Part shown: positions 1,665-37,213 of the stretch, one piece after another
Layout: each line of letters opens with the position of its first letter
Position numbering within the stretch: position 1 is the first letter of the stretch
Assembly (NCBI GenBank): GCA_024231215.1
Contig: JAAEQR010000099.1
Coordinates: 50,401 to 114,400, forward strand
From: PVC group bacterium
GTDB taxonomy: Bacteria > Omnitrophota > Gorgyraeia > B26-G9
Reading direction: 5' to 3'
Length of the DNA: 64,000 nt
The notes under the pieces: model-generated
Database searches by the model: none
What the model saw: only the letters and a program-made list of their open reading frames with translations
What the model was told of the DNA's origin: nothing
Program-made: the position numbers and the translations under genes

Positions 1665-4325
1665 GTGACTCAGCTTACAAAAAATTGTATCTTAGGAATA
1701 GCTTTATTCTCTATGCTTTTATTGCCGGTGATCGGACTTAAGGCTCAAGAAGCTTCGTTCGAATTACATGCTCCAGGCACACAGTTTCCGGTTGATTATA
1801 CTGCGTTTGGTGAATTTTATGATGTAAATACCGAAAACTTTTTTTACAACACCCTTGATCCTGTTGGATTAAAAGCTGCGGTAGGCGAAGGAATATATCC
1901 TAATACTACAAGCATCTACGCCGATCCTGGGTATCAACAGTATTTAAGTGAAGGAAAATTAGGTGGAAGTCATTGGGATTTTATTAATACTGATGACCCA
2001 CAAGCTGATTTTTATAAATGGGCTACGGCACCCGAAGAACCTGGAGTAAAACTGTTCTTCACAGCTCAAGCATTAATAAATGCCGGACATATTGAACACG
2101 CGATAAAAGCTTTTCACGCAATTATTATTCATTACCAAAAATCTCCGTGTTATGATCCCTGGGGTGATTTTTATTGGTATGTTGGCCCATCCTCAGTCAG
2201 CATGATTGATACTCTTTGCCGCGATTATCCGGAATTAGAAGTAAAATTAACCACTGCAAAAGTACGGATTCAAAACGGAAGCGATCTTGATCTTAGCAAC
2301 GACATTGCAGTTACTGATCCGGGCAGCTTTATCAGTTATACACACGCCGATAGATTAGCCGCTGTGAGCGATCCATCAACATTAACCATCGCCGAACAAA
2401 GAGGCACTGGAAAAGTACAAGTAGTAAAATATTCAAGTGGACATTGGCAGCTTATCGTCGACGGAAAACCGTTTATTATTAAAGGTATGACTTATGGGCC
2501 AACACAAGTCGGCATGGGTTCTCAAGAACAAGGGGAATGGATATCTTTAGATTCGAATAATAACGACAAGATAGATGCTCCTTATGACTCATGGGTAGAT
2601 CGAAATAATAATAATATTCAGGATTTTAATGAACCTACTGTCGGAGATTTTCAACTTTTAAAAGAATTAGGCTGCAATTCCATTCGATTGTTTCATTCTG
2701 CCGGAGACGATAATATCACATACGATCCTGGTGAGCTGGATAAAACAATCCTTAGAGATCTATATAATACTTATGGCATACGAGTAATCTTGGGGGATTT
2801 TCTTGGAGCGTATACAATTGGTTCCGGTGCAGACTGGTCAGTTGGAACAGACTATACAGACCCTCAGCAAAGAGAAAACATGAAAAACGTAGTTAGAGAT
2901 TTAGTGCTGGACCATAAAGATGAACCATATGTACTGCTCTGGCTGCTTGGAAATGAAAATAATATGGAATCTGAATACGGCGGAGTAAATGCTACCCGTA
3001 CCAATGCTGCAGTTTATCCTCAGGAATACGCGGAATTTTTAAATGAAGTAGCTGCGATGATTCATGCTATTGATCCGGACCATCCGGTTGCTCTGGGTAA
3101 TTTAGGCACTGGCCTGCTTGAATATTATGGTGATTACGCCCAGGAAATAGATATTTTAGCAACAAATTGGTATACTGGTAAATATGGCATTGGTTTCTCT
3201 TATTTAGATGAAATAAAAGAAAAATTTGACCGGCCGGTATTTCTTCCGGAATATGGTTGTGATGCCTATCATTACGAGCAAGGCGAAAATCAGGCAGAGC
3301 AAGCCGCACATCACAAAGGCTGCTGGAGAGCAATTATGTATAACACAGCTCACAATCCGGCAATAGGTAATATGCTTGGTGCGATGGTCTTTGAATGGTT
3401 GGATGAATGGTGGAAAGATACACAGTCTGGAGACTCTGTATATAGTCACCAAACAGAGCCTCAGTTTCACTGGGGAATCCTCCCTGATGGCTGGTCGCAT
3501 GAAGAATGGTTTGGTATTTGCAGTCAAGGTAACGGCAGCAACAGTCCATTCCTTCGACAATTGAGGGAAGCTTATTATGTATATAAATCTTTGTGGTCAC
3601 CGCCTCTGACAAAATACGGACATAATATAATTTTAAGCTGGAATAGTTATCCAGGAATTACTTATGACATATATTATAGTGATGATGGATCAACTTGGCA
3701 TTTAGCCCAATCTGAGATCCCGGCATCAGGAATAAGCACAACCACCTGGCCGGATAATGGCGAATATACAGGAACTCATCCCAAAAATGTTTCGATTAGA
3801 TATTATCGAGTTGCTGTACACGGTAAGTCCCCGGCTTTATATGTACTTCAGGAAAATACAGGCTCTGACGCTGAAGGCACTATTTCCGGAACAGTTACCT
3901 TACAGTCAAGAACCGACCACAGCGCTACGCTTACATTTGAACTTAGGGAGCCAGGAGAAACAACATCTCTCTACACTTACGAAGTTAACACTTCCACTAA
4001 CGGAAGTTTTTCTCTGGAAGATATTCCCAGCGGCACATATGATCTTACCGTGAAAAATTTTAATTCGCTGCGTGCAAAACAAACAAATATTATAATTAAT
4101 GAGGGTGAAACTACTGCAAATATAAATTTCTATCTTTTCGGAGGAGATGCAAATAATGATAATTATGTCTCCTGGTATGATTTTGGGATATTAAGAAATT
4201 CCTATCGTTCAAGCACTGGACATCCTCGCTGGGACGCCCGGGCTGATTTTAACAATGATGGATATGTATCTTGGTATGATTTTGGAATCCTGCGCAGTAA
4301 TTACAGGCGTCAGGGCGCAGAATAA
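1665..4325 (+). CDS. Secreted dockerin-bearing glycoside hydrolase with a clan GH-A-like TIM barrel
   Basis: N-terminal signal peptide. WLLGNENN motif (acid/base Glu of retaining TIM-barrel glycosidases) and a later FEWLDEWW candidate nucleophile. C-terminal beta-sandwich regions. Two tandem dockerin-like Ca-binding repeats: DANNDNYVSWYDFGIL and DFNNDGYVSWYDFGIL. Confidence 0.75.
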   Translation: MTQLTKNCILGIALFSMLLLPVIGLKAQEASFELHAPGTQFPVDYTAFGEFYDVNTENFFYNTLDPVGLKAAVGEGIYPNTTSIYADPGYQQYLSEGKLGGSHWDFINTDDPQADFYKWATAPEEPGVKLFFTAQALINAGHIEHAIKAFHAIIIHYQKSPCYDPWGDFYWYVGPSSVSMIDTLCRDYPELEVKLTTAKVRIQNGSDLDLSNDIAVTDPGSFISYTHADRLAAVSDPSTLTIAEQRGTGKVQVVKYSSGHWQLIVDGKPFIIKGMTYGPTQVGMGSQEQGEWISLDSNNNDKIDAPYDSWVDRNNNNIQDFNEPTVGDFQLLKELGCNSIRLFHSAGDDNITYDPGELDKTILRDLYNTYGIRVILGDFLGAYTIGSGADWSVGTDYTDPQQRENMKNVVRDLVLDHKDEPYVLLWLLGNENNMESEYGGVNATRTNAAVYPQEYAEFLNEVAAMIHAIDPDHPVALGNLGTGLLEYYGDYAQEIDILATNWYTGKYGIGFSYLDEIKEKFDRPVFLPEYGCDAYHYEQGENQAEQAAHHKGCWRAIMYNTAHNPAIGNMLGAMVFEWLDEWWKDTQSGDSVYSHQTEPQFHWGILPDGWSHEEWFGICSQGNGSNSPFLRQLREAYYVYKSLWSPPLTKYGHNIILSWNSYPGITYDIYYSDDGSTWHLAQSEIPASGISTTTWPDNGEYTGTHPKNVSIRYYRVAVHGKSPALYVLQENTGSDAEGTISGTVTLQSRTDHSATLTFELREPGETTSLYTYEVNTSTNGSFSLEDIPSGTYDLTVKNFNSLRAKQTNIIINEGETTANINFYLFGGDANNDNYVSWYDFGILRNSYRSSTGHPRWDARADFNNDGYVSWYDFGILRSNYRRQGAE

Positions 4326-4357
4326 TAATTTAATTTGACAAAAAAAGGAGTCGTATT

Positions 4358-4981
4358 ATGAAAAAACTAACAATTATATTATTGGTGTTCGGATTCATAG
4401 CTATACCTTCTATGCAGGCTAATGCTCAGGAAATCTTCAGCCTGGTCCCGGACAAAACTACGGTTGATGTTGGCGAAACTTTCAATGTGGATGTTATATT
4501 CAATAATCCTCAAGGAACCCCGTTTATTGAGCTGTGGTCCTGGATACAGTTTGATCCACAATATCTTACGGTTGTTGATCCCGGTGAAGATGGAAGCTGG
4601 ATAACCTCTCCGGACACAAACATCTCTGATGCCGCATCTCATTCAAACTTCTCTTTTTCCTGGCATATAGACAACAAGGTTGATAATGTTTTTGGCGATA
4701 TCGACTATGCCGAAAGCGTTAGTACCAACGATCCCATTACCAGTAGCGGCACTTTTGCCTCAATAACATTTCAGGCACTTGAAGTTACAAATAATACGTC
4801 TATAGATTTCGTCACCGATGGCACCCCTATTAGAAATAGTCTTGTGGTAGGCGCTGACGGATTTACAAATATCTTAGACGATGCATTTGCTACGAATATA
4901 ACAGTTATTCCGGAACCAACAAGTATATTATTATTTGGTTTTGGATTATTAGGAATATCTCTTCACAGGCGAAAAAAATAA
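4358..4981 (+). CDS. PEP-CTERM-anchored secreted protein with a cohesin-like beta-sandwich domain
   Basis: Signal peptide. C-terminal VIPEPTSILLFGFGLLGISLHRRKK is a classic PEP-CTERM exosortase signal (PEP motif, TM helix, basic tail). The mature region fits the cohesin pattern: V.VGETF.V.V, W.QFDP.YL.VVD and GTFASITFQAL. The cohesin assignment is only moderate. Confidence 0.7.
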   Translation: MKKLTIILLVFGFIAIPSMQANAQEIFSLVPDKTTVDVGETFNVDVIFNNPQGTPFIELWSWIQFDPQYLTVVDPGEDGSWITSPDTNISDAASHSNFSFSWHIDNKVDNVFGDIDYAESVSTNDPITSSGTFASITFQALEVTNNTSIDFVTDGTPIRNSLVVGADGFTNILDDAFATNITVIPEPTSILLFGFGLLGISLHRRKK

Positions 4982-5642: not shown

Positions 5643-7052
5643 TTAAAGCTCCGCCAGAAATTTCACTTCAAAATTCACCAATTCCAGTCCTTTTATTTTT
5701 CGCTTACGAGTGTTCCGAGTCTCTACCTCTTTAAACTGTTTTGATTCTTCTAGTTTTGTAGTTAGACCAAATATGTCAGACAGCTGCTGCGCTGTACCTT
5801 TTAAAACCACGTTATTATCTGCATCAATGCTTAAGTTCGTTATCACCACCGATTCGCTCACTGCTTTTTGAAGTTGGAACAATACAAATAGGGGGATTTG
5901 GCGTTCTGCCAACAATTCCTTTGTTGTTTTTATTTTTTTTCTCTGATGCACAACTTCACCCAGTTGCTTTTCAATCACCGAAGCCTGTTCGTTTAGTCTT
6001 GCTAAATATGCCCGATTTTGTTGTTGGCGCCCTAAAAAGATAAAAAAGATAACCCCTAAAATATAAATCGATCCCAAACCAATAGTCATCAACTCTTTCA
6101 TCCTCCGACGAAGATCCTTGCGAATCTGTATCTCCGGCAAGGTAAAACTAAACTGCCTCTGTATATTATCAAAAAACAATGCCGCTACCCCGCTCACTGA
6201 AGCATCTTTGGGAATTGTTCTCTTTTTTGCCCGAAGGCATTTGTCCATTCCTGGGATTTTTACGCTTTGCACTGGGAATTCCAATTCTTGCTCAATACTT
6301 GGCGCCAATATTTCAGCAAAGGCTCCGCTTAAAAAAACCTGTGACGGCTTTGCACTCTGTTCTTCACTATTGAAAATTATTAAGGCCTGCCGAATATCAC
6401 CCATCAATCGATTTCTTCCTGTTTTTTCTTCTAATTGAATATTTTTAAAAGAAATGCTTCGCGAAAAAACTAACCGACCGCCTTTTAAAATAATAAGATC
6501 TGTAAAAAAAGTATCTACATCTAAAATTAAATAGACCTCTTCTTTGCTTATCTTCATTTTTGAGGTTTTTAATATAAGGTGATACAGCCCTTCGGAGCTA
6601 AACATTATGCTGTCTACAGGAAAGCCTGTCTTTTCGATAATCCGCATCTGCTTACGCATGATTTCTTTAGTAACAATCGCCACTAATATTCGCGAATACC
6701 CTCTTTCATCTTGTCCACATATCTGATAGCTGTAAAACATTTCTTCTTTTTTATACGGAACAATCCGGTTAATATGCAGCTCTACCATCTTGATCAATTC
6801 TTTTTTATCTTTGGACGGCAAGGACAAGTTTCTCACGGTAACAAAGTTACGAGGTAAAGACAAAGCTACTGAGGTAGGTTTATATTTGTTTTTCTTAAAA
6901 ACATCTATGATCGTATCTGTAATAGCCGCGTCATCAAGCCCGGCAATCCGTTTTACAATACAATCTGTAAATTTTGGCTGCGCGCCCATTTGATCCGCGG
7001 TTATTATTTTTAAATATTGCTCTCCGATTTCAATTCCGGCAAATAATTTCAT
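5643..7052 (-). CDS. pilMN: PilM-PilN fusion: actin-like PilM ATPase-fold domain, then a TM helix and a PilN periplasmic domain
   Basis: N-terminal LFAGIEIGEQYLKIIT matches the PilM start. A TM helix MTIGLGSIYILGVIFFIFLG follows, then a PilN-like coiled coil and C-terminal domain. Confidence 0.75.
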   Translation of the reverse strand: MKLFAGIEIGEQYLKIITADQMGAQPKFTDCIVKRIAGLDDAAITDTIIDVFKKNKYKPTSVALSLPRNFVTVRNLSLPSKDKKELIKMVELHINRIVPYKKEEMFYSYQICGQDERGYSRILVAIVTKEIMRKQMRIIEKTGFPVDSIMFSSEGLYHLILKTSKMKISKEEVYLILDVDTFFTDLIILKGGRLVFSRSISFKNIQLEEKTGRNRLMGDIRQALIIFNSEEQSAKPSQVFLSGAFAEILAPSIEQELEFPVQSVKIPGMDKCLRAKKRTIPKDASVSGVAALFFDNIQRQFSFTLPEIQIRKDLRRRMKELMTIGLGSIYILGVIFFIFLGRQQQNRAYLARLNEQASVIEKQLGEVVHQRKKIKTTKELLAERQIPLFVLFQLQKAVSESVVITNLSIDADNNVVLKGTAQQLSDIFGLTTKLEESKQFKEVETRNTRKRKIKGLELVNFEVKFLAEL

Positions 7053-7077: not shown

Positions 7078-8463
7078 TTATGCTGGCAAACTACCGATCA
7101 TATAAAACTTTTCTTCACTAATATGATCCACTCTGCCGCTTAAAATTTTCTGGCATCCGGATAATGTATCCTCCAAAGAAACATAATGTCCCTTTTTCCC
7201 TGTATAGCTTTCCACAACAAAAAACGGCTGGGTCAAAAAATTCTGCAGTTTCCTTGCCCGGTCAAAAATAACCTGTTCTTCATGTGTAAGCTCAGACTTC
7301 CCGATAATCGATACAATTCTCTGCAACTCGTCATAGCGCTGAAAATAACGCAATACTTCCTGGCTTATGCTATAATGTGCAGCCCCGATAATGTCCGACG
7401 AAATAAACGCGGAGCTTGATTCCAGCGGATGAATTGCCGGATACAAACCATGTTGTACGTATTCCCGGGACAATACCATAATCGAATCTAAATGGCTGAA
7501 TATGGTTACTACCGCAGGATCTGTTAAATCATCTGCCGGGACATAAACCGCTTCCACGCTGGTAATACTACCGTCTTCTGTAGAAGCAATGCGTTCATGA
7601 AATTCGCCAATTTCACTGGTTAATGTCGGCTGATATCCTGTCTCCGACGGAATCCTTCCCAGCAAGGCAGACACCTCGCTTCCTGCCTGCGCGAAACGAA
7701 ACACATTATCCACAAAAAATAATACATCCTGGCCATCTTCCCTCAACGATTCGGCAATAGTAACCGACGTTCTGGCGCTCTCAAATCTCGCTCCCGGAGA
7801 TTCATTCATTTGCCCGAAGACAAGAATAGAATTCTTTAATAGATCACGTTCTAAAAATTCATAATACAATTCATTCCCTTCCCTGATCCGTTCGCCAATC
7901 CCGCTAAATACACAAGTACCTTTTTGTTTATGAATAATATTATGGATAAGCTCTAAAATAATTATTGATTTGCCGCAAGCCGCGCCACCCAGAATGCCTG
8001 TTTTAGATCCTTTAACAAAAGGAAATAACAAATCAATAACTTTAACGCCTGTTTCTAGAATTTCATGCGTTAGCTTTTCACCTTTTTTTGTTTTTACATC
8101 TCTACGCATTTTAGACCTGTGTGTTGATAAAAATTTGTCAGCTTTCACCGGCCCTTTTTTGTCTATGGGCTTACCCATAACATTCAATAATCTACCATAT
8201 AAATATTTCGCTTCAGGAACCGTTAAACCCTTTCGAGTCCTTTCCACTGAAGTATTGCGACGCAGTCCATATGTAAAAGACAGCGCAATACATCGGCAGA
8301 TATTGTCCAGCTTATGTTCTATAACCTCTAAAACCACTTCTTCGTCACGATAATTTTTTGCCATAACGATTTCATGAATTCCCGCGATTGCTTTTTTGCT
8401 CGGGAATTGGACATCTACAACCGGTCCATATACAGCAACGATTTTACCAATATCTTCCCTCAT
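7078..8463 (-). CDS. atpD: F-type ATPase beta subunit, divergent P-loop
   Basis: Strong beta-subunit identity blocks: [30 protein letters not shown] and [13 protein letters not shown]. Walker A is GGAACGKS instead of GGAGVGKT. The DELSEED region reads SELTHEE. There is an N-terminal insertion. Confidence 0.85.
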
Positions 8464-9318
8464 TTATTTCTTCACCTTAATCCGCGCAGCAAATAATTCG
8501 CGAATTCGTTTATCTGCCAACGCATGTACACTTTTAAAATATTCTCTAGCTAACTTTCTATTAATTCGAGTTAGCTCCTGATAGCTTGCTTCTAAATGCA
8601 TAAGCCTGGCAGCCAATTCTGCCAGTTTACTAGAATATAGTATCTGACCCAAGCTAGATTCTAAATACAAACCTATCAATCCTTCGATAATACTTTGATC
8701 AGACGGCTCTGTAATTATTGCTTCCTTTGTTTTCTTCCTAACTTTCCCCTCTAATTCCGACATGGGAAAAGGCAGCAGCTGCCGCGTTTTTATTTCGCGC
8801 GCAGTAACTGAAATAAATTCAGCATACACAATAATCGCTTTATTAATTTTCCCGTCTAAATAATCACGAATTAAAAACTTTTTTAGTTTTCGCGCTTCAC
8901 TCAAAAAAGTCTTTTCTTTGACCCCCGGCAAGAACCTAAAAGACTCTTTTTTACCGCGAAAATAATGAGACCCCTTATCTCCTAAAACAATATAAGAATC
9001 TTCCGGGGTTTTTTTCTGACGTAAAGCAGCACTGATCAAAAGCATATTTAAGTCCCCTAAAAACCCTTCGTCAGAGGTAATTACCACAATGGTCTGAGGA
9101 GTCTCCTGTTCCCGCAACAGCAAAGGATGTATAGTGATCTTTTCCTGGCCCAGTTTAGAAAGAACTGAATATATTTCCCGGGGAAATCTTTCTTCTCCCC
9201 ACTGCTGCCGCTGAAACTGCCGCAACTGGATAGATGTCGCAATCTTCAGAATATTAATTATCTGATCTAAGCTTTCATTAAAGCTTAAACTATATTTAAG
9301 TTGGGAAAGTGACTTCAT
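8464..9318 (-). CDS. atpG: F-type ATPase gamma subunit
   Basis: 284 aa with N- and C-terminal helices. Sits between the alpha and beta genes as in atpAGD operons. Confidence 0.7.
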   Translation of the reverse strand: MKSLSQLKYSLSFNESLDQIINILKIATSIQLRQFQRQQWGEERFPREIYSVLSKLGQEKITIHPLLLREQETPQTIVVITSDEGFLGDLNMLLISAALRQKKTPEDSYIVLGDKGSHYFRGKKESFRFLPGVKEKTFLSEARKLKKFLIRDYLDGKINKAIIVYAEFISVTAREIKTRQLLPFPMSELEGKVRKKTKEAIITEPSDQSIIEGLIGLYLESSLGQILYSSKLAELAARLMHLEASYQELTRINRKLAREYFKSVHALADKRIRELFAARIKVKK

Positions 9319-9339
9319 GTAAAATCAATCCCTGTTTCT

Positions 9340-10815
9340 CTAGGTTTTTGCTTTTTTCTTCTTAAAATACTCTATAAGTGCTACATCTAATTGTGTTTTT
9401 ACTATATCGGTCAAGGTTTTTTCATTTTCAATTGCAGTTACTAGATCCGGGTATTTCTTGCACAGAAATGGAAGTATCTCCTGTTTAAACTTGTTCCAAA
9501 GTTCAGGAGGAAGAACCTCCAAAATCTTCTTTTTAAACGCGTAAAAAAGAGCTACTTCCGCAGTTAACGCCAATGGATTATAATTCTCCTGAACAAACAA
9601 TTCTTCTAATACCTTGCCCCGGCGAATAATAGCCTGCGCTTCTTTAGAAAGTCCGGTACGCAAACGCATTAAACGCAGCATTTCCCGGTATTGTAGATAG
9701 TCCAAACGGATTCCTTCGCTTAATTCCCGCAACGCCGGACATTGGACTTTAGAGCCAAGACGTGATACAGAAAGGCCAATATCAATTGCCGGCTTAAACC
9801 CTTCCCGGAATAAATTATTATTTAAAAATATCTGTCCGTCGGTGATTGATACCAGGTTAGAGGGAATAAACCCGGTAATATCTCCCTGCAAAGTTTCTAC
9901 GATAGGCAAAAAACTCATAGTTCCACCGCCTAATTCCGCTTTTAATTTTGCGGCTCTTTCCAGTAACTGGGAATGAATAAAAAAGATATCTCCGGGATAT
10001 GCTTCTCTCCCGGGAGAACGTTCAAGCAATAAAGATATCTGCCGATATGCCCAGGCATGTTTGGTTAAATCATCAAAGACAACAACAACATCCCGGCCCT
10101 GATGCATAAAATATTCACCAATTGCCGCGGCAGTATAAGGAGCAATATACTGCTCTGCCGGAGAACTTGAGGCAGAAGAACAAACCCCAACAACGGTAGG
10201 CATTATATCGGTTTGCACTAGCTGATGAATAATCTTTTCAAATGTGGATTGAGACCCTCCGATAAAACAATAAATGCAAACCACATCTTTATCTCGTTGA
10301 TTAATCATCGTATCCATGGCAATACTCGTGCGTCCTGTCTGCCTGTCTCCGACGATTAATTCTCTTTGCCCTTTACCAATTGGAATAGTTAAATCAATAA
10401 TTTTTATTCCGGTTGATAATTGTTCAGATATGGGATCGCGCTCCATAATTCCCGGAGCTTGCCGAAAAACCGGATAACGATCTACCTCGGGAATAGAACC
10501 TTTATCGTCTACCGGCTGAGCCAGACAATCAACTACTCTACCCAAGAGTTTATTTGACACCGGAACCGCAAGTAATTCACTCGCGCTTTTTAAATAATCA
10601 CCGATTTTGATATCCGGCTCATCAGATAAAACAATAATAAATACTTCATTCGGATCAAACCCGATAACCACGCCCTTGGTCCCATCATTAAATTCTACCA
10701 GCTGCCCATAAAGACACGACGGCAATCCGTCTGCCTTAACAATCCCCTGGGTTATTTCTTTAATGCGGCCAACTTCCCTGATTTCTACCTGCGGTATTTG
10801 TATTTGCTTTTGCAT
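9340..10815 (-). CDS. atpA: F-type ATPase alpha subunit with Lys-to-Arg change in the P-loop
   Basis: GDRQTGRTSIAMDTMINQ versus the canonical GDRQTGKTA.A.D.I.NQ. Remaining alpha-subunit blocks are conserved. Confidence 0.85.
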   Translation of the reverse strand: MQKQIQIPQVEIREVGRIKEITQGIVKADGLPSCLYGQLVEFNDGTKGVVIGFDPNEVFIIVLSDEPDIKIGDYLKSASELLAVPVSNKLLGRVVDCLAQPVDDKGSIPEVDRYPVFRQAPGIMERDPISEQLSTGIKIIDLTIPIGKGQRELIVGDRQTGRTSIAMDTMINQRDKDVVCIYCFIGGSQSTFEKIIHQLVQTDIMPTVVGVCSSASSSPAEQYIAPYTAAAIGEYFMHQGRDVVVVFDDLTKHAWAYRQISLLLERSPGREAYPGDIFFIHSQLLERAAKLKAELGGGTMSFLPIVETLQGDITGFIPSNLVSITDGQIFLNNNLFREGFKPAIDIGLSVSRLGSKVQCPALRELSEGIRLDYLQYREMLRLMRLRTGLSKEAQAIIRRGKVLEELFVQENYNPLALTAEVALFYAFKKKILEVLPPELWNKFKQEILPFLCKKYPDLVTAIENEKTLTDIVKTQLDVALIEYFKKKKAKT

Positions 10816-10830
10816 CTTTCCTTTATATTA

Positions 10831-11568
10831 TCAAAAAGTCAGGTTTTGTTTATCTTGACCCAGTTGCTGCACTGCCTTGCTGAATTTATTATGCAAACTG
10901 CCGTCAATAATAAATGAGCCAATCTCTATAATTAATCCGCCAATCATAGCTTCATCGATTACTTGTTCTATGGCTATTTTTTGACCTAGTTTTTCACTAA
11001 GCATTGTATTTAAACAATCTTTTTGTTGTTCTGTCAACGCGCGAATAGTAATTGCCTTTGCCTGCTCTATTTCAATCGGAAAACGTTCCTTGTCAATGCC
11101 CTTTATTATCTCAATAACTTCATCTATAAGAGAATGGTGCAATGTGTCTTGAGCATGAGAACTGAAGGTAAGACGCACAATCTCCAACGCATAACGCAAC
11201 GCCTGATGATCAAATTTTAGAAATAACTTATTTTTCAGTTTATCTACACGTTCTTTGCTTTCATTTATAATTTTATCTGCTTCTATCTGTCCTTTATCTT
11301 CTTGATTTTTCTGCAATATTTTGCCTATATTTACAGCTTCATCCGTAACGCGCTTTGCCTCCTGCTTAGCTTTTTCCACCCTCGCTGTGGCCTCTTCCTC
11401 TGCCTTAACCAATCCGGTCTTTAATTTCTCTTCAATGATCTCATTTTCTCTTTGCAATGATTGTAATCGCCGCAATGCAGTATTAACACTGCGCGCGTAA
11501 AAAAATCGCAAAGCAATCAGTATTGCAATAAATGTAACTATTTGAATTATAATTAATTGTGTGCCCAT
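10831..11568 (-). CDS. atpFH: F-type ATPase b subunit fused to a truncated delta (OSCP) C-terminal domain
   Basis: TM helix, long charged coiled coil, then an OSCP-like C-terminal motif GGLIIEIGSFIIDGSLHNKF. Start taken at MGTQ (11568), which abuts the c-subunit stop; the ORF-track start at 11631 is probably over-extended. Confidence 0.6.
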   Translation of the reverse strand: MGTQLIIIQIVTFIAILIALRFFYARSVNTALRRLQSLQRENEIIEEKLKTGLVKAEEEATARVEKAKQEAKRVTDEAVNIGKILQKNQEDKGQIEADKIINESKERVDKLKNKLFLKFDHQALRYALEIVRLTFSSHAQDTLHHSLIDEVIEIIKGIDKERFPIEIEQAKAITIRALTEQQKDCLNTMLSEKLGQKIAIEQVIDEAMIGGLIIEIGSFIIDGSLHNKFSKAVQQLGQDKQNLTF

Positions 11569-11569
11569 A

Positions 11570-11779
11570 TTATTTAAACAAGTTATACACCACAAGTAAC
11601 GCAAGTACTGCGATCGCTTCCGCGAATACAAACGCTGTGATCATAATTACAAAAATCTTAGGCGCCGCGCCTGGATTACGTCCTACTGCACGCACTGCAT
11701 TACGCCCAACCATTCCAATCACAAGTGCCGGGCCCATTGTACTTAAAAGCATAATTAAAGTTACGGTAAAATTCTGCAT
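11570..11779 (-). CDS. atpE: F-type ATPase c subunit (proteolipid)
   Basis: 69 aa two-helix hairpin. Polar loop GRNPGA. Conserved ion-binding Glu in helix 2 (FAEAIAVLAL). Confidence 0.8.
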   Translation of the reverse strand: MQNFTVTLIMLLSTMGPALVIGMVGRNAVRAVGRNPGAAPKIFVIMITAFVFAEAIAVLALLVVYNLFK

Positions 11780-26421: not shown

Positions 26422-26505
26422 GAGAGACTCTCCTCCCTGGTAAAAAAATCGTTTATCGGTTAATCGGTTTTATATCGGGCGGACACAAGGCCCGCCCCTA
26501 CAGGA

Positions 26506-27429
26506 TTATTCTTCGATTTTTGCTTCTAGTTCTTTTATCCTCTTTTTTTCTATTTCCATGCGTTTTTGCATAGCTCTATATGAAACCATGTCTGCCGCAT
26601 ATCTCTCTTGTAGATTTTGTTTTAGAACTTTTGTTTCTGTCTTTATTTTCTGCTCAAACTTCATTCTTTCTGTTTCTTGCGTAATCACCAGTTTTTTCTG
26701 TAAATGCATATTCACAGAATATAAAGCACCCACGAGCAAAAGCATCACCCCAACAGCCACGCCACTCATAACACGCTTCTTGTGCTGCTCTTCAGGTTCT
26801 TCTTCGGGATTATCTTCTTTTGCAGCTTCTATTGCTGCATCTATTTTCTTTTTAAACTCTTTGGATCCAATAACTCTTTTGCGGCCCAAAGCATTACTTA
26901 AACTGGCAATTTCATCCTTGCCCATTATTTCGACAAAATCAGCATAACTGCGTCCGTCTAAACTCTCGAGTCCTTCTGTTTTTTCCTCAGCAATGTTGAC
27001 CGTATCCGCTAAAAGCTCATTTTTTACATATAAGGCATAGCTGCTAAATGGGTTTTCCTGGGAATGCATGCAGGCAATCACTTTTCCTAGCCAAGGCATT
27101 TTTTCAATTAATACACAGCGATACCGTTCGGTAAATAAATGTCCGGTACGATCATATTTTTTATTAAAATATTTAATGTAAGAAGAGTTCAGGTCATGCA
27201 TGATTTGCGAAATAGTTACACCTTCAACCAGTTCTATTAATAAATTAAGCTGGGATGAGTCTAAAACATAAGCAAATAATTTAAATCCATGTTGTTCTTT
27301 GTATTTTTTCAAAAGATCCACATAAGCTTGAAAATCTTCATTGTCTTTAAAAATATTCCGATTATTGTCTCCTCGAGAGGTAGTATGATATAAGGCTCCT
27401 TCAATATTGATTCTCGGCATCCTTGGCAT
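26506..27429 (-). CDS. Inactivated IS200-like Y1-transposase-fold domain fused to a TM helix and a C-terminal coiled coil
   Basis: The N-terminal 150 aa align to IS200/RAYT TnpA. The strand-1 YH motif is kept (ALYHTTSRG) and so is the catalytic-Tyr region (FTERYRCV). The HuH histidines are replaced (SQLNLLIEL where HIHMLLEI is expected). A TM helix (GVAVGVMLLLVGALYSV) and a K/E-rich coiled coil follow. Start assigned at the internal Met preceded by an AAAGGAG RBS. Confidence 0.65.
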   Translation of the reverse strand: MPRMPRINIEGALYHTTSRGDNNRNIFKDNEDFQAYVDLLKKYKEQHGFKLFAYVLDSSQLNLLIELVEGVTISQIMHDLNSSYIKYFNKKYDRTGHLFTERYRCVLIEKMPWLGKVIACMHSQENPFSSYALYVKNELLADTVNIAEEKTEGLESLDGRSYADFVEIMGKDEIASLSNALGRKRVIGSKEFKKKIDAAIEAAKEDNPEEEPEEQHKKRVMSGVAVGVMLLLVGALYSVNMHLQKKLVITQETERMKFEQKIKTETKVLKQNLQERYAADMVSYRAMQKRMEIEKKRIKELEAKIEE

Positions 27430-27525
27430 TATGCAGCTCCTTTCGCTGGTAATTTCATCAGTCAATAGCTAATAGTCTATGGTTTTGATTTTTCTTTGTA
27501 ATGCTATTAACCCTAGACTTCTTCC

Positions 27526-27538
27526 TAGTGCGTGGCAC
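27526..27538. repeat. 13-nt perfect direct repeat TAGTGCGTGGCAC, copy A
   Basis: Exact second copy at 27712-27724. The two copies bracket the intergenic terminator and structured region. Confidence 0.6.
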
Positions 27539-27552
27539 TTTACTTGTTTTGC

Positions 27553-27584
27553 AAAAAAAAATCTCAGACAAACTCGCCTGAGAT
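27553..27584 (-). terminator. Strong intrinsic terminator: 7-bp stem followed by a 9-nt U-run on the minus strand
   Basis: Minus-strand transcript ATCTCAG-gcgagtttgt-CTGAGAT followed by UUUUUUUUU (plus-strand A9 at 27553-27561). Lies between the 95-aa gene and the Y1-like gene. Confidence 0.7.
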
Positions 27585-27711
27585 CACTTGCTGCAACCTG
27601 CCAATCCCGACTCTCGTCTCAGGACGCACGGCTTTGCGTCCCCAGCTTCCGCTGAGTTTGCCCACATTAACTATATATTATAAGTATACCTTACTATATA
27701 AATGCGCGCAA

Positions 27712-27724
27712 TAGTGCGTGGCAC
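27712..27724. repeat. 13-nt perfect direct repeat TAGTGCGTGGCAC, copy B
   Basis: Identical to 27526-27538. On the minus strand it lies about 28 nt upstream of a TTATAAT hexamer (27683-27677). Confidence 0.6.
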
Positions 27725-27770
27725 GTGCTTTTGTATCTTTTTTAAACACAACAATTAATGGGAATGCGTT

Positions 27771-28058
27771 TTATTTAGCCGCCGTTTTTTCAAGTTTTCT
27801 GCGACGTAATGCACTTTGTGCAACCTCTTGAGCTAAAGCTTCATACTCAGCTATCTGCTGCTCATATTCTTTGTACATTTCATCAATAGCTAAAGTTTCC
27901 TGCTTTGCCATTTCAATATCGTATTTAGCCTCTTCTCCCTGGGCAATATTTTGTGTCCATAATCCGGCAAAAACAATCATTACGCACAAAACAAAAATAC
28001 TGGCACCGAGAAACCCCATGACTATCTTTAAAATTGTATTTGATATACTTGCTTTCAC
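27771..28058 (-). CDS. Small bitopic membrane protein with coiled coil
   Basis: N-terminal TM helix and a Q/E/A-rich coiled coil. Overlaps the upstream gene by 4 nt. Confidence 0.5.
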   Translation of the reverse strand: MKASISNTILKIVMGFLGASIFVLCVMIVFAGLWTQNIAQGEEAKYDIEMAKQETLAIDEMYKEYEQQIAEYEALAQEVAQSALRRRKLEKTAAK

Positions 28059-32712: not shown

Positions 32713-32800
32713 GGAGGAGTGGCTGAGTGGTCGAAAGCGGCGGTCTTGAAAACCGTTGTACTGCAAGGTACCGTGGGTTCGAATCCTACCTCCTCCGCCA
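32713..32800 (+). tRNA. tRNA-Ser (anticodon UGA), class II with long variable arm
   Basis: Acceptor GGAGGAG pairs with CTCCTCC. Discriminator G and encoded CCA. Anticodon loop CTTGAAA (TGA at 32747-32749). T-loop GGTTCGAATCC. Confidence 0.85.
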
Positions 32801-33328: not shown

Positions 33329-35449
33329 TTAAATGGCACTGTCTGTTAGAATTTCCATTGGGGACGGCTGTGTTGTTTCTTTTGTTAGTTTCTTTTCAGC
33401 ACGAGAAGCAAGAAATTTATAATGATTATATGCGTTTTCATATCCAACTTGCCTAAATAAATCTTTTCCCACGATTCCTATTTCTCTGATTTTCTGAGCA
33501 ATAGTACGATAGTCGCTCTTCTGTTCTGCTTTGTCACAAGTTGCCATGGCATCAAAAAACATATCCATATCAGCCAACTCGTGTGCTGGAACACTCTCCC
33601 CATTTAAGATGTTTGGCCAAAAATTATGATGTGATTCTATTGGTTTTGAAATCGGCGTGCTAAGAAACTGAAATTGTTCTATTTCTACCATAGCCCCCCT
33701 CTCTCCTACTGCTAAAAGTTGCAAGGCATAACATCCGGGCTGGTCTCCTGGCAAGCCAAATAGATACATTAAATATGATAAGTTTATTGTGATTATCCCG
33801 TCCTGTAACTGCAAATCTTGCCAGCTTATATCCTCTTGCACTCGTATATATTTATCCTCTGCAAAAGGTGGATAATGCAATGTTAGCGCAATCTTATCTC
33901 CCTCGCTGATCTTACCTACTTTTATTTTAACAAAAACACCTTCCTTTTTATCGCTTGATAGCTTCAGCTTTACCGCATCCGGAATCTCAAACAATCCTCC
34001 TCCCCAAGAAGTATCCTCTAATTTATTGGTGATTCTTATCGTCCTGCGCTCATGATCAAAATGCAAACCATCTGCTCGATTAAAATAATGCTCATTATCT
34101 CCTGTGCTTGCTTTCATAAAGATTTTAGTCTTATAGTAATTTTCTATAACATTATAGTTTTGTGATAAAGCTGCGCCCGCAAGCCTTCCCTTTAAATAAT
34201 CATCAGCAAGTTCATGCAGTACTTTTAAATCTGGATATTGTTTGATTAAACGCATTATGGGAGAAACTTCTTTTTCAAACATATGACTGCCTGCTAACCG
34301 CTCCAGAATATTGTGCTTAAAAGGTTCTACTGCTAATTCTCCGATGTAACGAACATACTGATAGATCAACCATATAATTTCGTCATTTTTTTTATTTATT
34401 GCTTCCCTGCAAGTTTCTTCTGCGGCATTAAGCAAAGTAATCATTTTTAAATTCTTTTTTTCCGGGCTCTCTGTTTCCTGAATACTATTATTTTCTATTT
34501 CTTTAATAATCTCTTTAATTTTATTACTTGCATTCACCTTTCTACTAACAAGCTTTATAATTTTCCGGATGGTTTCGCTATCCTTTTCGAGAAGAGGTGT
34601 CTGTTTTTTTATCTTATTGGACAAAGTTCGGATTGTATTATAGTTACCTTTTTCACTTTTTAGCTCCGCTACGAAAGTCTCGATGAGCAGCGGCAAAAGA
34701 GATTTAAAGGATTGTAGCGCAAGTTTTGCTGGACGTGTAGCGTTCGGGGAACGCTCCCGTGCTAGTTTCAATGCAGCTTCCACTTGTTTTTGAAGCTCCT
34801 CAACACTCGTCCCATCATAAGGATACATTGCGACCCCCGCAGTAATTCTTACCTTGTGCTCTTCTTGAATAGGATTAAACTTTTTTTTCAGCCTTGGAAG
34901 GACTAAATCATTTGCTTGCTGATAATCAGCGTCCGGAAGAACAATCGTAAAGCTATCCTTCCCCGCAAATAATTCATCTGAATCGCGTAAAATGCTTTTA
35001 CATTCTTTTTCTACCTCTTTAAATAAGTCAGTATTATCTGTTACTTTTTCTCCATTATAAAGTTCTATTTTTATTACAGAAAATTTCGCCCCTTCAAGCA
35101 TTTTGTTCATAATAGAGCTGTCTACCGGAGTCCCTGGTTTTTTAATTTTTTTCTGCCACTGCAATAAAATCCGGCTTAAAAAAGATGGGGTATGGGGATA
35201 TTCCTCTGTCTTCATCCCGAACGTTAGATTTATGTCGGGAATTTGCTTGTTTTGCGATGGCGAAAAACTCGCCATTTTTTCAAGCGTTTCCTGAAAGTCA
35301 CTACTCTCCAACCGTACAGAAGGCGCAAGCATCTCTGTTTCTTGGCGAGCTGCCGACAAAGACGGCAGTCCAAGCAATAAAAGAGTCTGAACTAGCAAAG
35401 CAATACCGCTTCGTAACAAAAAGTGATTTTTGAAGCTATTAAACCGCAA
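33329..35449 (-). CDS. Secreted protein with a degenerate GGDEF domain followed by a large uncharacterised C-terminal region
   Basis: Signal peptide. GGDEF-domain core aligns (ILRDSDELFAGKDSFTIVLPDAD ... VRITAGVAMYPYDGTSVEELQKQVEAALKLAR), but the active-site GGDEF motif reads AGKDS. Confidence 0.6.
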   Translation of the reverse strand: MRFNSFKNHFLLRSGIALLVQTLLLLGLPSLSAARQETEMLAPSVRLESSDFQETLEKMASFSPSQNKQIPDINLTFGMKTEEYPHTPSFLSRILLQWQKKIKKPGTPVDSSIMNKMLEGAKFSVIKIELYNGEKVTDNTDLFKEVEKECKSILRDSDELFAGKDSFTIVLPDADYQQANDLVLPRLKKKFNPIQEEHKVRITAGVAMYPYDGTSVEELQKQVEAALKLARERSPNATRPAKLALQSFKSLLPLLIETFVAELKSEKGNYNTIRTLSNKIKKQTPLLEKDSETIRKIIKLVSRKVNASNKIKEIIKEIENNSIQETESPEKKNLKMITLLNAAEETCREAINKKNDEIIWLIYQYVRYIGELAVEPFKHNILERLAGSHMFEKEVSPIMRLIKQYPDLKVLHELADDYLKGRLAGAALSQNYNVIENYYKTKIFMKASTGDNEHYFNRADGLHFDHERRTIRITNKLEDTSWGGGLFEIPDAVKLKLSSDKKEGVFVKIKVGKISEGDKIALTLHYPPFAEDKYIRVQEDISWQDLQLQDGIITINLSYLMYLFGLPGDQPGCYALQLLAVGERGAMVEIEQFQFLSTPISKPIESHHNFWPNILNGESVPAHELADMDMFFDAMATCDKAEQKSDYRTIAQKIREIGIVGKDLFRQVGYENAYNHYKFLASRAEKKLTKETTQPSPMEILTDSAI

Positions 35450-36409: not shown

Positions 36410-37213
36410 TTAGCTTTTCTTTTTAAAAAATCCGATCATCCCAATTCCCGCTAACATTAAAAGGCTAGTTGCCGGCTCTGGAACAACGGTTAAAGTACCT
36501 CCCGCAAAACTACCACCATCAAGTCCTGCAGAAAAACTAGTCTTTTCTGTGTAAATTCCCCAGTGGTAAGTTCCTCCCGGAAGATTTTTCCCAGCATCAG
36601 CAAAGTCAACGAAATAGGTGCTACCATCAAAATCAATATCAGCGTTCCAGGATGTATAGAGTTCCACGGTTTCCGATAAATCCAGGTATCCACTACCATC
36701 TGTAAATGTTTTGCCGTCATTCCAAAAACCAATCCAGCATCTAGAATCAGCGATTGCATCCCAGCTTATTTTAGCTTCTTCTGAATAATTATTTTCCAAG
36801 CTTGCGCTTGCAAATTCTAAACTATTACCCAAGAAATCATCAGCCTCTTCGGCTAACAAGCTGCTAGATTGATCATATATGCGAAGCCAGCCGTATGACT
36901 GAGGTGCTCCCATAACCGCGCAGGTGTAAACTCCATCTGCCGCAAAAACATCGCCATAAATACCAGAGTCAGTCAAATCATAAGTCCCCATTAAAAGTCC
37001 ACCTGAGGTATAATCTTGTCCCACAACACTTATATTTGTATATGCCGGATTAGAGACAAAAATTGCCGCTTCGCTATCTCCCAAAAGAGAAGTATAATAA
37101 CTATCAAACCTAACTGACATGTAATCTTCAGCAAACGCAGGACTACAAATCAAGGTAAACAGCGCACAAAAAACCCCTATCCAATACTTTGTCTTATTAA
37201 TTTTTTTACTCAT
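36410..37213 (-). CDS. PEP-CTERM-anchored secreted protein
   Basis: Signal peptide. C-terminal VVPEPATSLLMLAGIGMIGFFKKKS. Confidence 0.75.
   Translation of the reverse strand: MSKKINKTKYWIGVFCALFTLICSPAFAEDYMSVRFDSYYTSLLGDSEAAIFVSNPAYTNISVVGQDYTSGGLLMGTYDLTDSGIYGDVFAADGVYTCAVMGAPQSYGWLRIYDQSSSLLAEEADDFLGNSLEFASASLENNYSEEAKISWDAIADSRCWIGFWNDGKTFTDGSGYLDLSETVELYTSWNADIDFDGSTYFVDFADAGKNLPGGTYHWGIYTEKTSFSAGLDGGSFAGGTLTVVPEPATSLLMLAGIGMIGFFKKKS

Follow-up and report, generated by a model that had tools for sequence, protein, structure and literature searches.

A predicted c-di-GMP-I riboswitch in the leader of a Y1-like and giant gene pair of Omnitrophota

What controls the transcription of a giant gene in an uncultured bacterium is the question raised by a 305-bp spacer in contig JAAEQR010000099.1 of assembly GCA_024231215.1, a PVC-group metagenome-assembled genome (MAG) of the phylum Omnitrophota. 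The stretch analyzed here (positions 50,401 to 114,400 of the contig) is 64 kb long and is referred to as the window, and all positions below are those of the window. On its 5' side, the spacer is preceded by genes for a secretin, two TPR proteins, and a protein of 95 amino acids (aa) with transmembrane (TM) and coiled-coil segments; on its 3' side lie a gene for a protein resembling Y1/HUH transposases (hereafter Y1-like) and then the giant gene. The element in the spacer and both of the genes that it would regulate are on the minus strand, and the positions of the element were taken from a minus-strand reading of 27300-27900. A first-pass annotation, made from the letters of the sequence, offered two descriptions of the spacer: a short terminated small RNA (sRNA), or the 3' end of the secretin operon plus an attenuator-like element controlling read-through into the giant gene. 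When read on the minus strand, the spacer consists of a promoter, a cyclic di-GMP (c-di-GMP)-I riboswitch aptamer, an intrinsic terminator, and two copies of a 13-mer, all located 5' of the Y1-like gene. It is very probably the promoter and 5' leader of a Y1-like/giant operon, with a GEMM-I riboswitch and terminator that are predicted to act as an OFF switch.

The identity of the element comes from the covariance-model scan that the first-pass annotation had proposed, which yields the c-di-GMP-I (GEMM-I) riboswitch, RF01051 (Weinberg 2007; Sudarsan 2008; reviewed in PMC7266159). Scanning the whole window at the Rfam gathering thresholds returned this match as the sole regulatory RNA, on the minus strand at 27672-27589, with a score of 54.7 bits against a gathering score of 35 and with model positions 1-87 of 87 aligned. 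The alignment from a permissive Rfam scan reads GGCAAAC...GGACGCAAAGCC...UGC and comprises P2 with its GGAA tetraloop, the P3 helix, and the 3' UGC. An alignment of 24 aptamers gives the canonical fold, with 15 of the 21 consensus pairs maintaining their pairing through double-sided changes, and the P2 tetraloop that is GGAA in the window is GUAA, GCAA, or GAAA in relatives. In type 1 GEMM RNAs, a GNRA loop of this kind docks into a receptor in P3. The GC-rich structured segment that had been noticed by eye is present at its position, and the 141-nt region is more stable than shuffled sequences (z = -4.2; 0 of 200 dinucleotide shuffles as stable); the CAGC-GGAA-GCUG hairpin described within it (27656-27641) is the P2 of the aptamer. 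However, the earlier nested drawing, with CUCAG...CUGAG enclosing a GGACGCA/UGCGUCC stem, differs from the fold conserved by covariation in the 24 aptamers. The complementarity of GGACGCA and UGCGUCC does exist (27641-27622), but it lies outside the covarying fold, in which UGCGUCC pairs with GGGAU-UG-GCA to form P3. A hairpin of these two segments appears in the unconstrained minimum free energy (MFE) folds of the window and of the related loci L001, L005, L010, L019, and L034, and it is a plausible ligand-free conformer that would sequester the ligand-binding core and compete with P3.

The same arrangement recurs throughout the phylum. Searching a profile of the Y1-like family against one genome per species gave 32 loci, all from Omnitrophota or PVC MAGs; three loci without upstream sequence (L015, L028, and L031) and one spurious C-terminal match (L032) were left out, which resulted in 28 usable loci. 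A same-strand aptamer of the c-di-GMP-I clan, at the Rfam gathering score, is found 88-436 nt 5' of the Y1-like ATG in 23 loci, and in L014, L016, and L018 the aptamer is present but split by stable inserted hairpin domains. The layout of promoter, aptamer, terminator, motif, and Y1-like gene, usually followed by a very long open reading frame (ORF), is common to 26 of the 28 usable loci, while L020 is the sole usable locus entirely lacking an aptamer. An extra locus recovered through an exact protein look-up (L034) has the same layout, an aptamer scoring 59.6 bits, and the same synteny of two TPR genes and a small ORF. At least 16 loci have, 3' of the Y1-like gene and either next to it or past 1-3 small ORFs, an ORF of >1,000-2,000 codons that is cut off by the end of the retrieved sequence. 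The leaders themselves share a fixed order, beginning with a TTGAnA-type -35, (tg)gTATACTttat, the aptamer, a linker of 3-35 nt, and a GC-rich hairpin with U7-9, and continuing past the terminator with an A-rich segment of 8-20 nt, AAAAGTGCCA(C/G)GCA(C/T), a ribosome-binding site (RBS), and the ATG. The proteins of the loci with this layout are only 36-51% identical.

The conservation bears directly on the null explanation named in the first-pass annotation, in which the spacer would be nothing more than the ordinary terminator in the 3' untranslated region (UTR) of the secretin operon, accompanied by a chance duplication of the 13-mer. There is indeed no terminator between the upstream 95-aa ORF (stop at 27771) and the element, and because of this, transcripts from upstream may also end at the 27553 terminator. 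Nevertheless, the RF01051 match exceeds its gathering score, the fold covaries, and promoter, aptamer, terminator, and motif are kept in more than 25 loci despite the divergence of the encoded proteins. An exact 13-mer direct repeat is also not readily produced by chance, since shuffling the 305-bp spacer 200,000 times gave one in only 158 cases (~8e-4). Taken together, the 54.7-bit match, the covarying fold, and the recurrence of the layout refute the null, the likelihood of which is negligible. The suggestion that the main role of the unit is to form the 3' end of the secretin operon is likewise unsupported, as a promoter of its own, kept in related loci, precedes it, although some read-through from upstream may occur.

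Comparison with related leaders also refines the promoter and the terminator. The hexamer TTATAAT singled out in the first-pass annotation is present at 27683-27677, but the -10 hexamer that is conserved across loci is the overlapping TATACT (27688-27683), and TTGACA, TTGAAA, or TTGATA occupies the place of the -35 in related loci. Likewise, the terminator hairpin and U9 are present as annotated, but the stem is longer than the 7 bp claimed; its arms GAUCUCAGGCG/UGUCUGAGAUU (27585-27560) form 11 pairs from 27585, four of them G-C, around a 4-nt loop, and the hairpin has a stability of -15.1 kcal/mol. A GC-rich hairpin directly 5' of a U9 tract is the form of a Rho-independent terminator, and a hairpin with a U-tract is found at the equivalent place in related leaders. 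The aptamer is separated from the terminator by 3 nt, and the RBS/ATG lies 159 nt 3' of the aptamer, placing the unit in a cis-regulatory position. The 84-nt gap between the Y1-like and giant genes contains a hairpin with no directly adjoining U-tract, followed by a strong RBS, and the two genes probably form one operon. Coordinates of all features are collected in Table 1.

Table 1. Features of the spacer and of the genes that it is predicted to regulate, in 5' to 3' order on the minus strand.
Feature	Positions	Strand	Basis
Upstream 13-mer copy, GTGCCACGCAC(TA)	27712..27724	minus	13-mer abuts the -35; GTGCCACGCAC itself ends 3 nt 5' of the -35
-35-like hexamer TTGCGC	27706..27711	minus	17 nt 5' of TATACT; inferred
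-10 hexamer TATACT	27683..27688	minus	(tg)gTATACTttat kept in most of 24 leaders
c-di-GMP-I (GEMM-I) aptamer	27589..27672	minus	RF01051 and covariation in 24 homologous aptamers
P2 hairpin CUCAGC-GGAA-GCUGGG, GNRA tetraloop	27641..27656	minus	Rfam alignment, family alignment
Alternative ligand-free hairpin GGACGCA-AAGCCG-UGCGUCC	27622..27641	minus	Unconstrained MFE folds; inferred
Conserved ligand-binding core ACGCAAAGCC (A47 equivalent is the first A after CGC)	27630..27639	minus	CGCAAAG in 24/24 aptamers
P3 helix AGCC-G-UGC-GUCC...GGGAU-UG-GCA-GGUU	27595..27633	minus	Rfam and family alignment
Candidate antiterminator 5' segment CCUGAGA (P3 5'/apical strand), complement of UCUCAGG at 27583-27577	27617..27623	minus	-12.6 kcal/mol
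Invariant C (C92 equivalent), 3' of P3	27593	minus	Family alignment
Intrinsic terminator: 11-pair stem 27585-27575 / 27570-27560, AGUU loop, U9 27561-27553	27553..27585	minus	Fold and relatives
Downstream 13-mer copy, after AAA, 14 nt past the U-tract, in the Y1-like 5' UTR	27526..27538	minus	Exact copy
RBS of the Y1-like gene, AAAGGAG	27437..27443	minus	Sequence reading
Regulated gene 1, Y1/HUH transposase-like, membrane-anchored, 307 aa	26506..27429 (ATG at 27429)	minus	PF01797, 36.4 bits
Regulated gene 2 (probably in one operon with gene 1), giant protein of 4,432 aa	13123..26421	minus	Kelch, DUF2341, Ig-like domains

The ligand of the window aptamer is predicted to be c-di-GMP. Positions G20, A47, and C92 (Vc2 numbering) are reportedly the bases that contact c-di-GMP, and the G before GCAAAC, the A after CGC, and the C after P3 in the window are their equivalents, going by the alignments to the Rfam consensus and within the family. 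Across the 24 aptamers, CGCAAAG (the A47 column) and the C located 3' of P3 (C92) are invariant, and the base preceding GCAAAC (the G20 column) is G in 23, the window included; the prediction is made because these equivalents are kept. A different ligand, either 3'3'-cyclic GMP-AMP (cGAMP) as in GEMM-Ib or the unidentified ligand of the c-di-GMP-I-GGC variant, is very unlikely. An E-value scan did name c-di-GMP-I-GGC as the clan member for the window, and several relatives exceed the gathering score of that model by ~1 bit. However, the 47.1 bits of the window against c-di-GMP-I-GGC (RF03167) fall under the gathering score of 59, compared with 54.7 bits, over the threshold of 35, against c-di-GMP-I. 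In addition, the defining base of the variant, as read from the Rfam consensus, is a G in the A47 column (ACGCGAAG); in the window and in each of the 23 relatives an A stands there (ACGCAAAG), so that by this base even the relatives scoring ~1 bit above the threshold are not GGC variants. Riboswitches of the GEMM-Ib type, which respond to cGAMP, are said to carry A20. The sole relative with an A at the G20 position, a change linked to cGAMP-responsive GEMM-Ib, is L030 (5803-5890; CAGAGCAAAC), but the base is G in the window, and the window aptamer accordingly has the defining base of neither the GGC variant nor GEMM-Ib.

In the mechanism proposed for the window, transcription would begin a few nt 3' of TATACT, and the nascent RNA would fold either as the aptamer (P2 and P3, with c-di-GMP held at the G20/A47/C92 equivalents) or as a competitor in which GGACGCA pairs with UGCGUCC and the released CCUGAGA can pair with the terminator 5' arm, UCUCAGG. 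Binding of c-di-GMP would lock P3, the terminator would form with its U9 tract, and transcription would stop at ~27553 to give an RNA of ~115-125 nt, while more read-through into the Y1-like and giant genes would occur without c-di-GMP. Such an OFF switch, in which c-di-GMP leads to termination, is predicted with moderate confidence. When the aptamer is enforced in folding, the full terminator is kept in every leader, and aptamer and terminator nowhere overlap, which excludes the simplest ON design; since the aptamer is compatible with the terminator, avoiding termination needs a competitor with which the aptamer cannot coexist. In the window, the upstream sequence that pairs best with the terminator 5' arm is GCGUCCUGAGAC, from the 5'/apical side of P3 (-12.6 kcal/mol). 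In L001 and L034 this segment of the aptamer takes part in another, longer pairing (CCUG-G/A-AGAUAU with AUAUCU-CAGG), and the MFE fold of their nascent RNA, before the terminator 3' arm, combines the GGACGCA/UGCGUCC hairpin with the antiterminator at ~5.3 kcal/mol below the aptamer fold. In the nascent RNA of the window, antiterminator and aptamer are isoenergetic (-28.6 versus -28.9), and another non-aptamer conformer reaches -31.8. Elsewhere, the competing pairings take other forms: the GGGAU of the L004-L011 clade has two alternative partners, the 5' leader (extended P1) and an AUCCC that overlaps the terminator arm, and in the L021-29 clade the P3 3' strand UUGGCAGGU matches the terminator arm ACCAGCCAA. 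In the window, L001, L002, the L021-29 clade, and L027, pairing of the terminator 5' arm is more extensive when the RNA folds freely than when the aptamer is enforced. All three of these clade-specific designs point to a putative OFF switch, and the earlier suggestion of attenuator-like control of read-through into the giant gene was essentially right: riboswitch aptamer and intrinsic terminator both belong to the 5' leader that precedes the Y1-like/giant pair.

Several observations weigh against this interpretation. The complementarity between aptamer and terminator arm in the window is no better than that obtained with shuffled arms (z = -0.99; 15.6% as good), and shuffling gives marginal support for L001 (3.8%) and for L034 (4.8%) and a mean z of -0.4 over the family; confidence in the OFF direction was lowered to its present level because this control was negative or marginal. 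Both states contain the terminator at equilibrium, which means that a switch, if there is one, has to work kinetically. The P1 of the window aptamer is very weak, with ~3 pairs that are flagged as non-canonical in the Rfam alignment, and the giant gene is presumed to be co-transcribed only because the 84-nt gap lacks a canonical terminator. Finally, high c-di-GMP usually favors adhesion, so that OFF control of an adhesin-like giant protein is counter-intuitive.

The last of these points leads to the alternative that the same riboswitch works as an ON switch, with c-di-GMP promoting read-through, for example through a bound aptamer that frees a linker segment to block the terminator. Genes for surface structures and adhesion are commonly induced by high c-di-GMP. 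Type II riboswitches of Clostridium difficile provide examples of such induction (PMC3649979), and the antiterminator that supports an OFF switch is not established statistically. In L021-type leaders, moreover, a linker hairpin pairs with the aptamer 3' strand in the free state (GGUUGCU:AGCAGCU), and if released by the ligand this linker could in principle pair weakly with the terminator 3' arm (CAGCU:GGCUG). On the other hand, no leader has an overlap of aptamer and terminator, all aptamer-enforced folds retain the full terminator, no conserved element pairing with the terminator solely when the aptamer is folded was found, and wherever a difference between the states is seen, enforcing the aptamer leaves the terminator 5' arm less paired. 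An ON switch is considered rather unlikely. The predicted OFF switch has precedents in C. difficile, the source of its best-studied analogues, where 11 of 12 c-di-GMP-I riboswitches are of the terminator type and OFF (e.g., Cdi1_3 located 5' of flgB, Cdi1_9, and Cdi1_12), producing terminated RNAs of 140-170 nt (PMC3649979). The window unit resembles these in having an intrinsic terminator 3' of its aptamer, in the short terminated RNA that is expected, and in the prediction that c-di-GMP raises termination, but it differs in that its direction is a prediction, its antiterminator candidate uses the P3 5'/apical strand rather than the P1 3' strand, and the genes downstream are other ones.

The short terminated RNA also recalls the first of the two original descriptions of the spacer. 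A discrete product of ~115-125 nt is to be expected, as had been proposed, but a free-standing sRNA gene is unlikely because the downstream ORF is conserved. The relevant precedent is the merRNA of Bdellovibrio bacteriovorus, a 445-nt RNA with no conserved downstream ORF, for which a role of c-di-GMP riboswitch RNA as a sponge has been proposed (PMC3627812). By analogy, the unit in the window could mainly make an abundant stand-alone RNA of ~120 nt, serving as a buffer or store of c-di-GMP or working in trans, without regulating the genes downstream. The promoter of the unit and its strong terminator, which is present in either state at equilibrium, would suit this purpose, Omnitrophota have been proposed to be predators or epibionts, as is Bdellovibrio, and terminated riboswitch RNAs do accumulate in C. 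difficile (PMC3649979). Like merRNA, the unit is a c-di-GMP-I aptamer in a (putative) predator that could accumulate as a discrete non-coding RNA. In contrast to merRNA, which is typified by the absence of a conserved downstream ORF (PMC3627812), the window unit precedes a conserved ORF equipped with an RBS and a 5' UTR motif. In 26 of 28 loci the next gene on that strand, a short and conserved distance away, is the same one, the conserved motif and RBS are located 3' of the unit, and in L013 the place right after the aptamer is taken by a gene for a long secreted protein. A purely stand-alone, merRNA-like RNA is consequently improbable, while a dual role, combining cis regulation with a stand-alone RNA, may exist.

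Aptamers bearing insertions form a distinct group among the relatives. The inserts of L014, L016, and L018 measure 56-78 nt and are located at the A47 position, between ...GCGC and AAAG..., or within P2. At the gathering score, Rfam misses these three aptamers, and threading is partial (a 31-bit partial match for L014); after the inserts were removed in silico, they match end to end a profile built from 24 confirmed aptamers, with scores of 51.5, 62.6, and 39.7 bits, respectively, compared with 36-80 for confirmed members. They may represent a structural GEMM-I subclass with an altered ligand response. The extra hairpin domains of these aptamers (L014:5768-5900, L016:5585-5770, and L018:5530-5760) have stabilities of -33 to -42 kcal/mol, and they are either inserted between C46 and the ligand-intercalating A47 or stand as additional hairpins in P2 or J1/2. 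Large extra hairpin domains are also found in L017 and L024, upstream of their Rfam matches. A different departure is seen at L013 (4524-4960), where aptamer and terminator stand directly 5' of a long protein with a signal peptide that runs off the contig, with no intervening Y1-like gene; the Y1-like gene of this locus is found 2.8 kb upstream, unaccompanied by an aptamer, and two copies of the palindrome discussed below are located upstream of the aptamer, one of them abutting the -35 TTGACA.

A second layer of control is suggested by the repeats. As the first-pass annotation had noticed, the exact 13-mer GTGCCACGCACTA occurs twice in the spacer (27724-27712 and 27538-27526), and there is no further copy in the 64-kb window, even with 2 mismatches. 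Among related loci the motif takes the general form of a conserved, position-specific mini-palindrome, GTGCCA(C/G)GCAC. Two types can be distinguished, type 1 being GTGC-CAC-GCAC, with compensatory ATGC...GCAT variants, and type 2 the perfect GTGCC-A-GGCAC, which extends to AAAGTGCCnGGCACTTT in L013, L024, and L026. Nearly all matches in 375 kb (window and loci) fall within two zones. The first zone, between terminator and ATG, contains AAAAGTGCCA(C/G)GCA in ~25 of 27 leaders, sometimes as two tandem copies, and the second lies 0-23 nt 5' of the -35 in the window, L001, L002, L003, L005, L010, L012, L013, L026, and L034. Neighboring copies are 20, 23, 31-32, or 63 bp apart, and the upstream copy is centered at -41 to -46, -52 to -54, or -64, a spacing that suggests binding of a protein on one face of double-stranded DNA. 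The palindrome most likely serves as the operator of a DNA-binding regulator that acts as a dimer. The idea that the repeats are regulator sites has thus gained from the conservation of the motif in sequence and position at ~25 loci, the regulator itself being putative; alternatively, the palindrome may act as an RNA hairpin in the 5' UTR or as a recognition site of the HUH protein itself.

Other readings of the motif were tried and rejected. A sigma-54 promoter would account for the antisense TGGCAC, but a -12 TTGC at the correct spacing is absent in most loci (the window has TGGCACTTTACTTGT only). An upstream ORF beginning GTG/ATG-CCA-CGC... has no Shine-Dalgarno sequence upstream of it, and its peptide is unconserved, with 6 codons in the L004 clade, 27 in the window, and ~60 in L003. 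A genome-wide repeat of the repetitive extragenic palindromic (REP) type does not fit the presence of just 2 copies in 64 kb and the position-specific occurrence elsewhere, and an antisense mini-terminator, flagged on the plus strand, was judged too weak, with a stem of 4-5 bp and a short T-run. The upstream 95-aa ORF was considered as the motif-binding regulator, but its product has TM and coiled-coil segments and no Pfam or NCBIfam match. As a separate observation, the motif resembles coding sequence for M/I/V-P-R-I. In the type 1 ('CACGCA') clade, a third near-identical copy is found at codons 4-7 of the Y1-like gene, where ATACCACGCAT encodes I-P-R-I (9-10 of 11 identities, against a background of ~0.5%). 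This copy is located at position +9 of the coding sequence in L004, L007-L011, L014, and L006, with that of L010 at +3, and lies ~32 bp from the UTR copy; it may be a functional third site or a coding coincidence.

The Y1-like protein itself matches PF01797 (Y1_Tnp) with 36.4 bits, and its match to the NCBIfam REP-associated tyrosine transposase (RAYT) model is sub-threshold. It is identical to an NCBI protein with the locus tag GY853_06245 ('PVC group bacterium' MAG), and its relatives are from Candidatus Omnitrophota. The AlphaFold model (pLDDT 83) has an N-terminal HUH/Y1 fold followed by helices, a hydrophobic helix flanked by K/R, and a helix of ~85 residues; the best PDB match of this model is 4er8 (RAYT with REP hairpin), followed by TnpA structures of IS200, IS608, and ISDra2. 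The TM segment and C-terminal coiled coil are conserved throughout the family alignment. The HUH histidines are kept in 19 of 20 relatives, but in the window copy HLH is replaced by QLN and 11 residues are missing next to the Y-x-Y-S-S-Y region (catalytic Tyr), so that the catalytic signature of a mobile element, HUH histidines plus Tyr, is not intact. Nor does the locus have the flanking hairpin ends or dispersed REP sequences of such an element, since the palindrome copies flank the promoter-riboswitch unit and none lies 3' of the gene. The Y1-like protein shares with RAYT/REP systems and with the Y1 transposases of IS200/IS605 (4er8, 2vjv) its Y1/HUH N-terminal domain and the small palindromic, hairpin-capable repeats adjoining its gene. 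It differs from them in its TM helix and coiled coil, its fixed context, and the loss of HUH histidines in the window copy, and the repeats differ from REP sequences in flanking the promoter-riboswitch unit, in having arms of 4-5 bp (up to 8 in a few loci) and no GTAG head, and in being undispersed. By these sequence and model features, the protein is a domesticated, membrane-anchored one in a fixed chromosomal context and not an insertion sequence, and this giant-gene-adjacent 'transposase' appears to be catalytically dead in some cases. A further speculation, quite improbable, joins the two subjects: the palindrome could be the recognition site of the riboswitch-controlled membrane HUH protein, with the domesticated transposase either regulating itself through sequence- or hairpin-specific binding or excising the motif-flanked promoter-riboswitch cassette. 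If this were true, the HUH protein would gate expression of the giant protein together with c-di-GMP.

While the riboswitch class and its mechanism are known, the context is new, as is the phylum-wide link with giant-gene loci of Omnitrophota. As in other GEMM-I riboswitches, the window element has a full-length match to the model, a P2 with a GNRA tetraloop, P3, the GGCAAAC and ACGCAAAGCC cores, the G20/A47/C92 equivalents, and a same-strand position in a 5' leader. It departs from the class in its very weak P1, in the large insertions at A47 or in P2 of some family members, and in its Omnitrophota host and the Y1/HUH and giant genes that it precedes, which are absent from the contexts described in the literature searched. 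No link of c-di-GMP riboswitches with IS200/Y1 transposases or Omnitrophota was described there. The literature on giant genes in Omnitrophota reports a locus resembling a type II secretion system (T2SS) upstream, PilZ genes downstream, and GGDEF domains inside some giant proteins. The giant genes presumably serve in attaching to prey and digesting it. The layout of the window agrees with these published loci; the accounts searched mention neither a riboswitch nor this Y1-like protein. A phylum-wide riboswitch located between the T2SS-like locus and the Y1-like/giant pair would be a concrete regulatory input for giant genes, and it agrees with the reported PilZ and GGDEF associations. Two further leads are the position-specific, operator-like palindrome and the GEMM-I aptamers with large insertions that are missed by standard models.

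Signalling by c-di-GMP in the host is represented in the window by a 706-aa GGDEF-domain protein (33329-35449, minus strand; PF00990, 35.5 bits against a cut-off of 23.8), which is encoded just 5' of the secretin operon and a tRNA gene and is a possible local source of the riboswitch ligand. The tRNA gene, found by the Rfam scan, lies at 32713-32797 on the plus strand, farther 5' of the secretin operon. Adjoining the giant gene on its 3' side is a set of F1-ATPase-like genes (7078-11631, minus strand), in which an OSCP/delta-like protein fused to a coiled coil is followed by alpha, gamma, and beta. This set, an unusual partner for a locus resembling a T2SS or type IV pilus system, precedes a PilM/PilN fusion gene (5643-7052), and Fo subunits were not seen in its vicinity. 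Hairpins rich in G and C, of the type GGGCGGGCC...CCGCCC / CCCGCCCGUCGGAGACGGGCG, occur both in the gap between the Y1-like and giant genes (26440-26500, minus strand) and in the 5' UTR of L001. Elsewhere in the window, 1665-4981 on the plus strand encodes a GH2-like glycosidase with a dockerin domain and then a cohesin-domain protein with a PEP-CTERM anchor, and a second PEP-CTERM protein is encoded at 36410-37213 on the minus strand; the dockerin, cohesin, and PEP-CTERM genes amount to cellulosome-like modules in an Omnitrophota genome.

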